Shown: positions 1 through 4,059 of the stretch, piece by piece
Numbering within the stretch: position 1 is the stretch's first letter
Layout: the number at the start of each line of letters is the position of its first letter
Notes under the pieces: model-generated
What the model was told of the DNA's origin: nothing
Databases searched by the model: none
Seen by the model: only the letters and a program-made list of their open reading frames with translations
Position numbers and translations under genes: made by a program
IMG/VR virus record: IMGVR_UViG_2671180770_000009
Direction: 5' to 3' (one strand)
Length of the DNA: 4,059 nucleotides
Source of the DNA: a virus
Lineage: Duplodnaviria; Heunggongvirae; Uroviricota; Caudoviricetes

Positions 1-86
1 TAACCATCATCGAGATCTGCCACATTACGCTCCTGTTCGGCAAAGTTACCTCTGCCGAAGTTGAGTATTTTTGCTGTATTTGTCAT
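1..86 (-). CDS. O: Replication initiation protein O-like, N-terminal 28 codons only (gene continues beyond the window start)
   Basis: Reverse-complement of 1..86 translates from ATG (86..84) as MTNTAKILNFGRGNFAEQERNVADLDDG, which matches my recollection of the lambda O N-terminus almost residue for residue. AGGAG Shine-Dalgarno (complement of 92..96) sits 5 nt upstream. It follows cII on the same strand as in lambda. Too short to appear in the ORF track. Confidence 0.8.
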   Translation of the reverse strand, partial: MTNTAKILNFGRGNFAEQERNVADLDDG

Positions 87-89
87 AAT
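61..89 (+). promoter_or_regulatory. pO-like promoter for the oop-like antisense RNA
   Basis: TTGAGT (61..66), 17-bp spacer, CATAAT (84..89) on the plus strand, placed just upstream of the oop-like transcript and overlapping the O start codon on the other strand. Hexamer match only; no transcript data. Confidence 0.4.
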
Positions 90-95
90 GACTCC

Positions 96-172
96 TGTAG
101 ATTGATCCAGTAATTCCCTCAGAATTGCATATCAATTTGCTTAGAGTCCCCGGCGGCCACCGGGGATTTTTT
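96..172 (+). ncRNA. oop: OOP-like antisense small RNA, antisense to the 3' end of cII
   Basis: Plus-strand segment gtagattgatccagtaat...ctcagaa resembles the lambda oop RNA as I recall it, and ends in a GC-rich hairpin plus T-run inside the cII 3' coding end. Position and antisense orientation relative to cII and O match lambda oop. The 5' end is estimated from the putative -10. Confidence 0.55.
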
Positions 173-1605: not shown

Positions 1606-1665
1606 CTTCATCGTCACATAGCTGGTAACCAGTGGCCAGAAGAAACGTTTGGGTGAGGAGGATAG

Positions 1666-2007
1666 ATGGCGTTCACTGACCTTGAATATCAAGCGGTCAA
1701 AAAAGAAGTTCACCAATTCATTGAAAGCATAAGGCCGCCTGAACATATCCGCAATGAACTGGATATTGTTTATAGCATCAATGACCAAACGATAGATATC
1801 GGCGAACAGCGCCCCGTGTGGCAGGGCAACCCAGGTGAAACAAACATCCTGCCATCAGCAAGAATCAAGTACATACGTTCTCTGGATAGATGGAAAATCT
1901 ATTGGATGCGGAAGGATATGAAATGGCATCAGTACAGTACTGAACTTTCGCTGACTGATGCGCTTGAGCTTGTGCGTGCTGACCCGGATTGCTGCTTCTT
2001 CGGATGA
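1666..2007 (+). CDS. DUF3024-like small protein (function unknown), first gene of the accessory cassette
   Basis: 113-aa ORF with a strong Shine-Dalgarno GAGGAGG (1653..1659) 6 nt before the ATG. It contains a WKIYW motif and a C-terminal CCFFG; from memory this matches Pfam DUF3024 (conserved WKI motif), which needs an HMM search to confirm. No terminator between the cI stop (1605) and this gene. Confidence 0.8.
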   Translation: MAFTDLEYQAVKKEVHQFIESIRPPEHIRNELDIVYSINDQTIDIGEQRPVWQGNPGETNILPSARIKYIRSLDRWKIYWMRKDMKWHQYSTELSLTDALELVRADPDCCFFG

Positions 2008-2077
2008 GTGAAGAGACGTTTGGATGATGGATGATCGCAGAGATGCTCGTAGAGCATACAGCGATGCAGGAGAATTT

Positions 2078-2512
2078 ATGGCACTTAATTTAGAAAGAAT
2101 ATCTTTTATAACCCCATTTGATAGCAGCGAAGAACCCAACCAACCGACGCTTAATTTTACATGCAATGAATTTCCTGCGCGGCTATCAATTGATTTCAGG
2201 GTTGGTATGATCGGGTTGAAACCAAATTCAAGATATAATTTGGGTATTATGGTAATCCCCGCGCACCTAATTATAAAAAAAGGTGAGGAAATTCAATTCC
2301 CTGACGGCTCTTCGGAATCAGTTTCACTTTTCATCGATACGAAAGATAGCCATTTTGAAACAGGGGTTGGCGGACAGGTAATAGTAACATTGAAAGAAAT
2401 TAGGGTCCCAGCTAAAGGGCTGTATAGTGTTATAGGGATATTGCAAGATAATGAAGACCCTAAAAATGAACTTCATAAAAATGAATCATTTTTCACCGTA
2501 GAGCTATTATGA
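2078..2512 (+). CDS. Hypothetical protein (about 144 aa, no recognisable domain), accessory cassette gene 2
   Basis: Open frame 2024..2512. Preferred start is ATG 2078 because AGGAG (2068..2072) sits 5 nt upstream; the ATG doublet at 2024/2027 has only a weak SD. Visibly AT-richer than the flanking phage core genes. Predicted soluble, no obvious TM segment. Its stop TGA overlaps the next ATG (ATGA at 2509..2512). Confidence 0.65.
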   Translation: MALNLERISFITPFDSSEEPNQPTLNFTCNEFPARLSIDFRVGMIGLKPNSRYNLGIMVIPAHLIIKKGEEIQFPDGSSESVSLFIDTKDSHFETGVGGQVIVTLKEIRVPAKGLYSVIGILQDNEDPKNELHKNESFFTVELL

Positions 2513-2661
2513 GTGACGACAGTAATTTAAATAATCATGGAAAGCAAGACGCCAACATATCTGAAAGCCGGAGGTTGAAGGTTGTTGGCGGTTCCGATTT
2601 TGAGGCTGAATTTGATAATTCTCCCACCAAGGTGCAAAATAATTACATAAAACCGCCATAA
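2509..2661 (+). CDS. Small hydrophilic ORF (50 aa), translationally coupled to the upstream gene
   Basis: ATG 2509 overlaps the upstream stop as ATGA. It translates as MSDDSNLNNHGKQDANISESRRLKVVGGSDFEAEFDNSPTKVQNNYIKPP and stops at TAA 2659..2661, 12 nt before the next gene's start. Not in the ORF track, presumably because of a length cutoff. No independent SD, so coding status is uncertain. Confidence 0.35.
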   Translation: MSDDSNLNNHGKQDANISESRRLKVVGGSDFEAEFDNSPTKVQNNYIKPP

Positions 2662-2673
2662 ACGGAGGAAGAA

Positions 2674-3129
2674 GTGGGAACGATCAGCAGAGAGGAACTT
2701 GATGCTCGCTTAGCTGCTAATAAAGCAGAGATGGAGTCTATTGCTTCTTCCATTAGGGCTGACATGGCTCTATCTCGTGAAAGCGTTAATGTCCAATTTG
2801 CATCACTTAATGCAGCCATAAGCTCTCTATCGTCCAAGATCGATGGAAAGATGGATAGCGCTGCTGGCGATATAAAAGCAATTAATGGGAGATTCGAAGG
2901 AATTCAAGGACAAATAACAGGGGTTAATACCGCAATTAGTGGTGTTCAGTCGGGTATTTCTATACGATTAGCCATTTTTAGTGTCATTATCGCTGTAATA
3001 GTTGCGATTCCCGGGCTGGTATCAGCTTTAAAGTCAGACCACGCACCTTTGCAACAGCCTTCCACTTTGCAAGCGCCGCCACAAAATACCCAGCCAACAG
3101 ACAACAAAAAAATCACTCCCCAGCATTAA
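2674..3129 (+). CDS. Tail-anchored coiled-coil membrane protein (single C-terminal TM helix, Pro/Gln-rich tail), accessory cassette gene 4
   Basis: 151-aa ORF from GTG 2674 (the first start codon after the in-frame stop at 2659..2661), with a strong SD GGAGG (2664..2668) 5 nt upstream. N-terminal about 95 aa are Ala/Ser/Ile-rich with a heptad-like pattern. A hydrophobic helix RLAIFSVIIAVIVAIPGLVSAL (about nt 2965..3030) is followed by a polar tail PLQQPSTLQAPPQNTQPTDNKKITPQH. Followed by an intrinsic terminator. Confidence 0.75.
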   Translation: MGTISREELDARLAANKAEMESIASSIRADMALSRESVNVQFASLNAAISSLSSKIDGKMDSAAGDIKAINGRFEGIQGQITGVNTAISGVQSGISIRLAIFSVIIAVIVAIPGLVSALKSDHAPLQQPSTLQAPPQNTQPTDNKKITPQH

Positions 3130-3137
3130 CGCATTAA

Positions 3138-3163
3138 CCCGGCCTCAGCGCCGGGTTTTCTTT
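3138..3163 (+). terminator. Rho-independent terminator ending the cI-cassette operon (t_imm analogue)
   Basis: Stem cccggc (3138..3143) / gccggg (3150..3155), 6-nt loop ctcagc, followed by TTTTCTTT (3156..3163), 9 nt after the stop of the membrane-protein gene. Confidence 0.7.
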
Positions 3164-3339
3164 GCCTCACGATCCCCACACCTAAAAACACATAACCAAT
3201 TGTATTTGTTGAAAAATAAATAGATACAACTTGCTAAACAACGCAATCCAGATCTCCCTCAAATCTCTTTATTTATCCTGTCGAATTCCTACAACAAAAT
3301 AAAACACCATAAGAATCAATACGATATTTGAAAACCAAG

Positions 3340-3395
3340 AGAATTTATCATTTTGCTATTGCCATTAATTTATCATTCCGATAAAGCTCACCCAT
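3340..3395 (+). promoter_or_regulatory. OL/pL-like operator-promoter region
   Basis: Perfect 17-bp palindrome TTTATCATTCCGATAAA (3369..3385) and related site TTTATCATTTTGCTATT (3344..3360) share the TTTATC half-site with the OR sites. Candidate pL: -35 TTGCCA (3359..3364) with -10 GATAAA/ATAAAG (3380..3386) at 15-16 bp spacing, overlapped by the palindrome. About 65-70 nt upstream of the nutL boxB, as expected for pL. Confidence 0.4.
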
Positions 3396-3455
3396 CAGCA
3401 GGACGCACTACTCACCAGGGCGGTGAATATACAACGATTCGAATATGAATCTACG

Positions 3456-3470
3456 GCGCTGACAAAGCGC
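3456..3470 (+). promoter_or_regulatory. nutL boxB RNA hairpin (P22-type)
   Basis: GCGCTGACAAAGCGC is a perfect 5-bp stem with a GACAA pentaloop, identical to the P22 boxB sequence as I recall it. It lies 166 nt upstream of the N-like gene start, on the same strand. No convincing boxA (CGCTCTT-like) in the preceding 80 nt. Confidence 0.65.
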
Positions 3471-3635
3471 AATAACCAAAGTGAACTTTGGGGTGTGGTG
3501 AAGGGTTCATGGACGGGAATATGTCGCACGTAAAGCGGCGAGGCCTGCGGGACTATTGCCGAATTGAAGTAGGCCGAAACAGGTCGAAATGGGTCTCCCA
3601 CCTACCACACCACCAAAGTTCATCAGGAGGTCTAT

Positions 3636-3974
3636 ATGACACGCAGAACTCAGTTCAAAGGCAATTCACGTTCTCGTCGTCGTGAGCGTTTAAAGGTAAA
3701 GGCATTAGCTAACGGCGTACTGGCCCGCGAAGAAGCAATAAGTTCAGAAGTATTACACCGCCCTACTCTAAGCAGAGCGCAGATTCAGGCTAAAGGTACT
3801 CACGAAACGCCTGAGCGTATAGAAGACGCTAAGCCAATTAAGTTCATGGCACAGGACGTGATCTGGCAACAGAAAGAATACAGACGCAATCTGGAGCGAG
3901 CGGCCATTGTGTACGCGAATGAGTTTGGACATAAGCAACCAGAAACTGGTGTATGTCTTGGCTTTGTTGAATAA
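3636..3974 (+). CDS. N: N-like transcription antitermination protein (arginine-rich motif)
   Basis: 112-aa ORF with SD AGGAGG (3625..3630) 5 nt before the ATG. N-terminal arginine-rich motif TRRTQFKGNSRSRRRERLK resembles the P22 gp24 ARM (GNAKTRRHERRRK, from memory). Position downstream of OL/pL/nutL on the cI strand matches lambda N. Confidence 0.75.
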   Translation: MTRRTQFKGNSRSRRRERLKVKALANGVLAREEAISSEVLHRPTLSRAQIQAKGTHETPERIEDAKPIKFMAQDVIWQQKEYRRNLERAAIVYANEFGHKQPETGVCLGFVE

Positions 3975-4059
3975 ATCGAACTTTTGCTGAGTTGAAGGAT
4001 CAGATCACGCATCCTCCCGACAACACAGACCATTCCGTGGCAAAGCAAAAGTTCAGAAT
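3975..4059 (+). other. Conserved N-distal region, resembling the lambda sequence downstream of N (tL1 neighbourhood)
   Basis: ttgaaggatcagatcacgcatcctcccgacaac...ccgtggcaaagcaaaagttca is nearly identical, from memory, to a lambda segment found downstream of N in pL-based vectors. Recollection only, not verified by alignment. Confidence 0.35.

Follow-up and report, generated by a model that had tools for sequence, protein, structure and literature searches.

The interval between the repressor gene cI and the antiterminator gene N of lambdoid phages is a mosaic hotspot in which RexAB and BstA are found (PMC8585504, PMC7067206, both citing Degnan 2007), and the kinase Stk of 933W and Hex of 434 are further occupants of the same slot. 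Stk aborts HK97 infection, its gene is co-transcribed with cI (PMC3564112), and in Phi24B transcriptomics cI, the DUF3024 gene and stk change together. We analyzed a 4059-base stretch of DNA, called the window below, which is the entire contig CYAV01000142.1 (assembly GCA_001277695.1; IMG/VR record IMGVR_UViG_2671180770_000009). Between a cI-type repressor gene and the pL region it carries a cassette of small genes that a preliminary description had proposed as a candidate anti-phage system, pointing to this slot as a home of exclusion systems, and the published hotspot agrees with that placement. By sequence comparison, two modules that are distributed independently of each other make up this mosaic cassette: a DUF3024 gene (gene 1), and a pair composed of a small soluble protein (gene 2) and a membrane protein (gene 3), for which a Rex-like exclusion role is plausible.

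Both modules have relatives in described phages. The pair is present in HK542 and HK244 (EF120458, EF120457, JQ086373), where c105 and c104 are the same two genes in the same order at 98% DNA identity. There, the two genes sit directly behind a lambda-immunity cI, without DUF3024, and between cI and the annotated Timm terminator and OL, which supports the earlier assignment of the cassette to the rexAB slot. HK542 c104 is intact and encodes 206 amino acids (aa). Both genes are annotated only as "hypothetical protein" in the records; no function is reported for them in the searchable literature and no paper there mentions the protein accessions. Gene 1 is the orthologue of 933W L0084, with 98% DNA identity to 933W and many Shiga toxin (Stx) phages. 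The two loci are alike in the leader after cI, the first place behind the repressor, and an operon closed by a terminator. The 933W operon, cI-L0084-L0083-stk-L0081-tM, differs in its downstream cargo, L0083, Stk and L0081, in place of which the window has the HK542-type pair. Although the composition had been suggested to be possibly undescribed, the component sequences are annotated hypothetical genes of 933W (L0084) and HK542 (c105, c104). Already known are the rexAB slot itself, the notion that exclusion genes are linked to repressors, and the sequences; what is new here is the revised gene structure, together with the mosaic junctions, the swapping of partners, and a conserved start inside gene 3.

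RexA and RexB of lambda resemble the cassette in slot, strand, closure by a terminator, presumed co-transcription with cI, and organization as a two-gene set of a soluble and a membrane protein. The soluble-plus-membrane pairing noted in the preliminary description holds for genes 2 and 3. The proteins themselves differ: genes 1-3 show no sequence similarity to RexA or RexB and, as was also noted earlier, no match to Rex models in Pfam, NCBIfam or PADLOC, and gene 3 has a single C-terminal hydrophobic segment, whereas RexB is a polytopic membrane protein. RexA is about twice the size of the 144-aa gene 2 protein. BstA likewise gave no PADLOC or Pfam match and differs in gene sizes and number, and we found no homology to characterized defense systems for any cassette protein. 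Another repressor-adjacent pair of a cytoplasmic and a membrane protein, gp30/gp31 of mycobacteriophage Sbash, has been called Rex-like without sequence similarity. Its proteins are unrelated to those studied here and its host belongs to another phylum, making it an analogy only.

Much of what was first reported about the layout of the cassette is reproduced. The open reading frames (ORFs) at 1666-2007 (113 aa), 2078-2512 (144 aa), 2509-2661 (50 aa), and 2674-3129 (151 aa) lie on the same strand with gaps of 60, 70, -4, and 12 nt. No terminator-like site occurs on the + strand from the cI stop (1605) to 3136, where an intrinsic terminator ends the repressor operon (3136-3165, + strand; hairpin at 3136-3157 with an 8-bp stem, 6 GC pairs, and a T run). 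The count of four genes, however, has to be reduced to three, as the third and fourth ORFs share one frame and are parted by a single TAA (2659-2661, + strand). This premature codon changes CAA to TAA and Gln51 to stop, and is a single-base difference from the related locus L001. E. coli 2013C-3342, which differs from the window at 2 of 1565 bases, one being C versus T at 2659, has CAA in this place and a single 206-aa coding sequence (WP_001278657.1, annotated by PGAP). The profile phrog_5820 (200 positions) covers both pieces, ORF3 on 1-56 and ORF4 on 63-199, and the 206-aa gene is intact in L001 and all 20 near-identical IMG/VR loci. Judged from these alignments, a single C-to-T change has divided one 206-aa gene into ORF3 and ORF4. 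The 50-aa ORF keeps the ATGA overlap (2509-2512) ascribed to it and loses its standing as a separate gene, being the 5' part of gene 3. Among the 51 complete E. coli genomes with the pair, the best match to the window does not exceed 99.8%.

The mosaic origin of the cassette is visible at its boundaries. In blastn searches, positions 1152-2046 of the window (the C-terminal half of cI, the leader, and DUF3024) are 97.8% identical to 933W, positions 2009-3256 are 98.1% identical to HK542, and the two matches overlap at 2009-2046. The overlap (+ strand) is a relic of a cI 3' end, containing GAAGAGACGTTTGGATGA at 2010-2027, that forms the module junction and is common to 933W (after L0084) and HK542 (at the end of cI). 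It is the second copy of its kind. The first, a lambda-type cI 3' end at 1630-1656 (+ strand), lies downstream of the real cI stop, reads CAGTGGCCAGAAGAAACGTTTGGGTGA, encodes QWPEETFG-stop, and aligns with the end of HK542 cI and with the post-cI sequence of 933W. The consensus of the relics is GAAGA(A/G)ACGTTTGG(G/A)TGA, encoding ...EETFG-stop, and several repressors upstream of pair loci end in QWPEETFG. Because two short linker copies flank DUF3024, this gene could be gained or lost between the repressor and the next cargo, and the cI-3'-end relics are likely recombination boundary sequences that shuffle cargo among immunity types.

These boundaries bear directly on the idea put forward in the preliminary description, namely that the four genes form a single anti-phage system, inherited together and functioning as one. 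Co-oriented, tightly spaced ORFs before one terminator are what such a system would look like, and the same three-gene arrangement of DUF3024 and the pair does recur, in 18 complete E. coli genomes and approximately 13 IMG/VR contigs. Yet ORF3 and ORF4 are a single gene that a point mutation has divided, and the module junction is a recombination linker. In 933W-type phages, Erwinia, Rahnella, and Kluyvera there is DUF3024 and no pair; in HK542 and most other loci there is the pair and no DUF3024. What was described as a four-gene cassette at the cI-pL position consists of three genes in two separable modules, one of the genes with a nonsense mutation, and the modules are distributed independently across genomes. 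We consider a single integrated unit highly improbable. Overall, the pair is found in 51 of 5426 complete E. coli genomes, and 849 E. coli records match some part of the cassette. Among 50,697 phage records, 144 contain DUF3024, mostly Stx phages, and only two, HK542 and HK244, contain gene 3. The AT-richness attributed to the cassette applies to gene 2 alone (GC 0.375); gene 3 is at 0.433 and DUF3024, at 0.459, exceeds cI (0.445).

We surveyed the pair in 43 complete IMG/VR loci found with a gene 3 profile. A small upstream partner is present in every complete gene 3 locus examined except L054, where an ORF walk found none. The partner is of the gene 2 type in 31 loci, with the 4-nt overlap in 31/31, and belongs to a different family of ~97 aa in about 10. 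Four loci, L053-L056, show a third context, with a partner of 112 or 120 aa called in three of them. The ~97-aa family is unrelated to gene 2, with an hhalign probability of 0.2%; with BLASTP also returning nothing, we ruled out that its members are gene 2 homologues of reduced length. For the 112-aa partner, Pfam gave no match, and neither did the gene 2-type or the ~97-aa profile. From these profile comparisons, the partners of gene 3 appear to be drawn from at least three families, two of which are shown to be unrelated, and different types of partner go with different N-terminal regions of gene 3. The window itself, compared with the HK542 c105/c104 type, has both genes adjacent with the 4-nt ATGA overlap and lacks an intact membrane protein of 200-222 aa. 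A scan of genome contigs with the gene 3 profile gave one locus only, the peptide patterns being restrictive.

The position of the pair is as consistent as its arrangement. In Enterobacter, Citrobacter, Phytobacter, Klebsiella, and Cedecea, homologues of genes 2 and 3 overlap by 4 nt and lie ~55-220 nt 3' of a prophage repressor, opposite cro/YdaS-type genes. The pair also lies directly behind repressors in Escherichia, and in Yersinia and Pectobacterium loci the ~97-aa partner type is found behind the repressor. Ten of ten representative upstream ORFs are helix-turn-helix (HTH) or HTH plus S24 repressors of clearly different types, which by sequence include lambda cI, 933W cI, and RacR-like proteins; BP-4795 cI is another repressor type with the pair behind it. 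In all three genes, the proportion of non-synonymous differences (pN, 0.10-0.43) is far below that of synonymous differences (pS, 0.58-0.88), which is saturated, indicating purifying selection on functional families. At L060 (1502-2147), two small hydrophobic proteins of 160 and 59 aa are encoded between the repressor and the partner-gene 3 pair, a case of further cargo stacking in the same operon.

Gene 2 (2078-2512, + strand) encodes a 144-aa cytoplasmic protein with an immunoglobulin (Ig)/fibronectin type III-like beta-sandwich and is the orthologue of HK542 c105. The preliminary description called it an orphan, and we find it to be a member of phrog_5893 (2.1e-50) and of a small Enterobacterales family, for which a profile search recovered 23 representatives among 1.84 billion at E <= 1e-3. 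The ATG at 2078 is most likely the start, and a 162-aa call from the ATG at 2024 less likely, because an AGGAG Shine-Dalgarno (SD) sequence lies just upstream of 2078, homologues are 143-144 aa long, and residue 3 is where the PHROG profile begins to align. The protein was found to lack both a signal peptide and hydrophobic segments. The structural model suggests an Ig-like beta-sandwich with moderate confidence. Matches of the gene 2 profile to giant adhesins were rejected as similarity among Ig repeats, not shared function. Neither gene 2 nor gene 3 has an informative match in Pfam, NCBIfam or PADLOC, PDB sequence and profile searches returned nothing significant, and gene 2 and DUF3024 match no enzymatic domain and no known defense family.

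Gene 3 (2509-3129, + strand) runs in one frame throughout, encodes a 206-aa tail-anchored coiled-coil membrane protein, and is the orthologue of HK542 c104 (phrog_5820, 7.1e-61); its ATG overlaps the gene 2 stop. The N-terminal ~55 residues are poorly conserved and are followed by a conserved stretch that starts with SREEL. As first described for the last ORF, a single strong hydrophobic segment follows ~90 residues of heptad repeats. The heptad coiled-coil segment (residues ~64-150; 2698-2958, + strand) keeps its register, with 7-residue indels among homologues, and runs directly up to the membrane helix. It gives only weak, coiled-coil-type matches (Baculo_PEP_C, SmhB, and MakE), and Pfam shows no match to the ElaB/YqjD (DUF883), holin or XhlA families, with Baculo_PEP_C at 20.6 bits against a cut-off of 38. 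The single C-terminal transmembrane helix (residues ~152-174; 2962-3030, + strand) was located by Kyte-Doolittle analysis, whose 19-residue maximum of 2.71 covers residues 154-172 and is centered at 163, and it is kept in all homologues. A tail of 32 residues, rich in Pro and Gln, follows, with the motif PIIIQVP in most homologues. The simplest reading of the topology is a tail anchor with the N-terminus inside, because the protein has no signal peptide and a 150-residue N-terminal part.

In the closest alternative to a Rex-like role, the pair would exclude phages by blocking DNA entry at injection or at an inner-membrane channel, like HK97 gp15, T4 Imm, and P22 SieA. Gene 3 is a predicted inner-membrane protein of a prophage, prophage proteins of such a kind are known to act by exclusion, and the PIIIQVP motif that most homologues keep after the helix would be periplasmic. 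On the other hand, most of the gene 3 protein and its partner would be cytoplasmic, the E. coli allele in the window is without PIIIQVP, and a swappable cytoplasmic partner is better suited to intracellular sensing. A block to DNA entry is thus unlikely in our judgment.

An internal start lies where the variable N-terminal region of gene 3 gives way to its conserved domain. An internal ribosome-binding site (2664-2676, + strand) is composed of GGAGG at 2664-2668, a 5-nt spacer, and GTG at 2674. An in-frame ATG or GTG stands 2-4 codons before SREEL in 15/15 distinct homologous loci, and an SD core of at least 4 nt precedes this start in 11/15 loci, compared with 4/934 other in-frame codons of the N-terminal regions. 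This conservation suggests that gene 3 has a probable second isoform, and 2674-3129 possibly encodes it as a putative short form of 151 aa. The long form is also real, because the frame upstream of the internal start is open in every locus and the ATGA coupling is conserved. The conserved in-frame start resembles the arrangement of SieB, a membrane-associated exclusion protein of the prophages P22 and lambda, for which Ranade and Poteete reportedly described in 1993 an in-frame internal product, Esc, that modulates the full-length protein; in gene 3 the short product would be the counterpart of Esc. Gene 3 and its partner gave no Pfam match to SieB at E up to 0.1, and sieB lies beyond N, outside the cI operon. 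Dual-start holins have a similar arrangement. A sigma-70-like site at 2612-2640 (+ strand; TTGATA, 17 nt, CAAAAT; 9/12 positions) lies within the N-terminal region of gene 3, ~30 nt 5' of the internal SD and GTG. From it the short isoform could be transcribed separately, much as rexB is from pLit; the resemblance is weak, and sites of this kind are no commoner in the window than in shuffled sequences.

Taken with its position, the architecture of the pair suggests the reading that we favor, with slightly more doubt than confidence: the region would be the accessory part of a damaged prophage's repressor operon, carrying two morons, of which the pair acts as a Rex-like exclusion or abortive-infection device. 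Co-transcription of the cassette with the repressor is plausible because the genes share a strand, the gaps are short, and no terminator is predicted before 3136. The homologous positions of this terminator are annotated as Timm in HK542 (EF120458) and tM in 933W (AF125520), and these equivalents are annotated as the ends of the pRM/pM transcript. In the lysogen, the repressor promoter would drive the pair. Its small soluble member would serve as an exchangeable specificity or sensor subunit whose docking site is the variable N-terminal part of the membrane protein, a site proposed because its type changes with partner type. The membrane protein would be the constant effector, oligomerizing via its coiled coil and perturbing the inner membrane once triggered, and the isoform begun at the internal start, which lacks the N-terminal region, would modulate the full-length protein in the way that Esc modulates SieB.

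Several points weigh against a Rex-like device. Docking has a single ground, the change of N-terminal type with partner type. The beta-sandwich and the coiled coil are generic folds that fit many functions, and the gene 2 model was built from nine sequences and reaches a predicted local distance difference test (pLDDT) score of 70.7, giving moderate confidence. Genes 2 and 3 match nothing in PADLOC even at E values up to 1, and the PADLOC match of gene 1, PDC-S43, is a candidate system only. Linkage to repressors is not absolute, as L058, L061, and the Xenorhabdus locus L022 (beside a tape-measure gene) occupy other moron sites. Part of the SD-like signal ahead of the internal start could stem from a linker that is acidic and rich in purines, and the copy in the window is mutated. 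Broken copies in other genomes, in which all lesions lie in gene 3, do not form a significant pattern (~0.12 for four events given the gene lengths). The Rex-like reading can also be carried further, to an uncharacterized Enterobacterales-wide family of two-component exclusion systems with a constant effector and interchangeable sensors (at least three families), regulated by an isoform and housed in the rexAB slot of prophages with widely differing repressors; this wider proposal is possible though doubtful.

Gene 1 (1666-2007, + strand) encodes a 113-aa DUF3024 protein and is preceded by the SD sequence GAGGAGG at 1655-1661. The earlier assignment of this ORF is confirmed by a full-length match to DUF3024 (PF11225; 2.4e-31, 108.7 bits against a gathering cut-off of 24.9; residues 4-113 on profile positions 2-112) and a match to phrog_3467 (4.5e-67). 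Gene 1 also matches the PADLOC profile PDC-S43 end to end (7.2e-42; residues 1-113 on profile positions 1-115), the only PADLOC match for genes 1-3 at E up to 1. PDC-S43 is a single-gene defense candidate with genes 2 and 3 outside its scope; the PDC systems are 145 candidates, chosen for having homologues embedded in BREX, DISARM or type I restriction-modification loci (source preprint). DUF3024 stands behind repressors with differing cargo, as in 933W and in Kluyvera, where an MqsA-like gene accompanies it. In Rahnella, it occurs alone beside tail-fibre genes, downstream of a dinI gene. In Erwinia aphidicola (L019, 4001-6130), DUF3024, a 153-aa protein, a Ser/Thr/Tyr kinase, and a 47-aa ORF lie beside tail genes and downstream of a dinI gene, with no repressor nearby; these are the same four genes as L0084-L0083-stk-L0081 of 933W. 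Gene order suggests that DUF3024 may be functionally tied to the Stk abortive-infection module in the 933W and Erwinia sets, a tie that does not apply here. About 51 Stx2 phage records, such as AP000363 (VT2-Sakai, 10557-10858), match DUF3024 residues 12-112 only, at 83% identity and in two pieces without an annotated gene, possibly a frameshifted remnant.

The AlphaFold (AF2) model of DUF3024 (pLDDT 89) predicts a helix, a five-stranded sheet, and a helix, forming an alpha-beta5-alpha sandwich. It has no close solved relative, its structural matches are weak and non-specific, and a Foldseek search against viral predicted structures gave nothing at E < 1e-3. From the model, DUF3024 is most likely a small non-enzymatic alpha/beta protein that acts through binding of another protein. 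By analogy, its role may be in defense or in the tuning of induction, like that of 434 Hex. This leads to a reading without defense, in which DUF3024 would be Hex-like and modulate repressor cleavage or the SOS/RecA response, so tuning spontaneous induction, and the pair would serve at the membrane or in stress, given its ElaB/YqjD-like architecture, or in lysis timing. A role in prophage maintenance or host physiology may apply, above all for DUF3024. Against it, Pfam shows no match to Hex-like, DUF883/ElaB, holin or XhlA families, the structural matches just described single out no function, the PADLOC curators found DUF3024 homologues inside defense systems, and rapid swapping of partner families is more like an arms race. 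We regard a purely non-defense role as unlikely, if by no means negligible.

The copy in the window is damaged. By its sequence, the stop at codon 51 abolishes the full-length isoform of gene 3, and only the long isoform would be lost because the stop lies 4 codons before the internal start; the copy is at best partly functional. Downstream, the antiterminator gene N is truncated (3636-3958, + strand; phrog_271, 9.5e-27) relative to the intact N of L001, BP-4795, and AU5Stx1, broken off after ~108 of 127 codons by the terminal-repeat end of an IS5-family insertion sequence (IS) at 3958-4059. This end has 100% matches at 6920 places annotated "IS5 family transposase", and from its terminal repeat we take it to be IS903-like. 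Complete E. coli genomes contain no example of this junction between N and the IS. Repetition of the element within the genome is the probable reason for the contig break at the IS, and the prophage is probably N-defective.

Lesions also occur elsewhere. In four further genomes of E. coli, gene 3 is damaged in one of three ways and gene 2 is intact: among them, L069 (CP063473) has an IS1 insertion near nt 350-363, L070 (CP148426) a 1-nt indel, and L071 (CP027459) a deletion of ~nt 26-330. This pattern may hint at a costly membrane effector. A metagenomic locus, L073, that had looked like a second split allele was set aside, its break being a scaffold gap of Ns and not a mutation. The nonsense codon in gene 3, the interrupted N, and the broken alleles in other genomes would all be expected if the cassette were here the decaying, inert cargo of a dead prophage. 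However, the families are under purifying selection, cI, cro, cII, DUF3024, and gene 2 are intact in the window, the conserved 151-aa part may still be made from an internal start with a strong SD, and expression of the repressor operon is independent of N. Inert cargo is therefore an improbable description of this locus.

The surroundings of the cassette identify the region, by sequence, as the immunity segment of a lambdoid prophage whose immunity is of the BP-4795 type. Over 1-1656 and 3132-3959, identity to the Stx1 phages BP-4795 and AU5Stx1 is 98-99%. The cI-type repressor (901-1605, + strand) has an HTH domain and an S24 peptidase domain (Pfam Peptidase_S24, 3.8e-16) and is of the BP-4795/AU5Stx1 immunity type, with 98.6-98.9% identity to both over 1-1656. 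These two phages carry different cargo, or almost none, between cI and pL, indicating that the slot is variable within one immunity type. On the - strand lie cII (119-415), called from its ORF and Pfam, and a cro-sized ORF of 77 aa (554-787) in the cro position as annotated in BP-4795 and AU5Stx1, for which a Pfam search found no match. Operator-like repeats of the type TTTATCATT-NN-GATAAA are present on the OR side (817-833 and 866-882) and on the OL side (3344-3360 and 3369-3385, + strand); the window has 7 matches compared with 0.36 expected, and these putative operators are presumably the sites bound by the repressor of this immunity type.

Three further features lie in the flanks. A promoter-like site at 61-89 (+ strand; TTGAGT, 17 nt, CATAAT, with an upstream TG) and a strong terminator hairpin with a T run at 143-170 (+ strand) are antisense to the 3' end of cII. 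Together (61-180, + strand), their layout and size of ~80 nt match the lambda oop antisense RNA; Rfam gave no match for this region and nothing meaningful otherwise. Just 5' of the N start, 3481-3500 pairs with 3603-3622 (+ strand) in a long-range stem (minimum free energy -62.3 kcal/mol, z = -3.9), which recalls the RNase III-processed leader of lambda N.

The value of the pair is that of a lead, supported by context, architecture, and evolution. Within a prophage, it is the repressor operon whose expression is reliable in the lysogen, and the space between cI and N is a recognized reservoir of exclusion systems. This work gives the anatomy of one occupant of the slot: a conserved membrane protein with swappable partners and a probable second isoform. 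The isolated phage HK542 carries an intact version in place of rexAB, which makes this defense candidate tractable in standard E. coli genetics. The cI-3'-end relics that serve as linkers show how cargo is shuffled between immunity types, those of Shiga toxin phages included.

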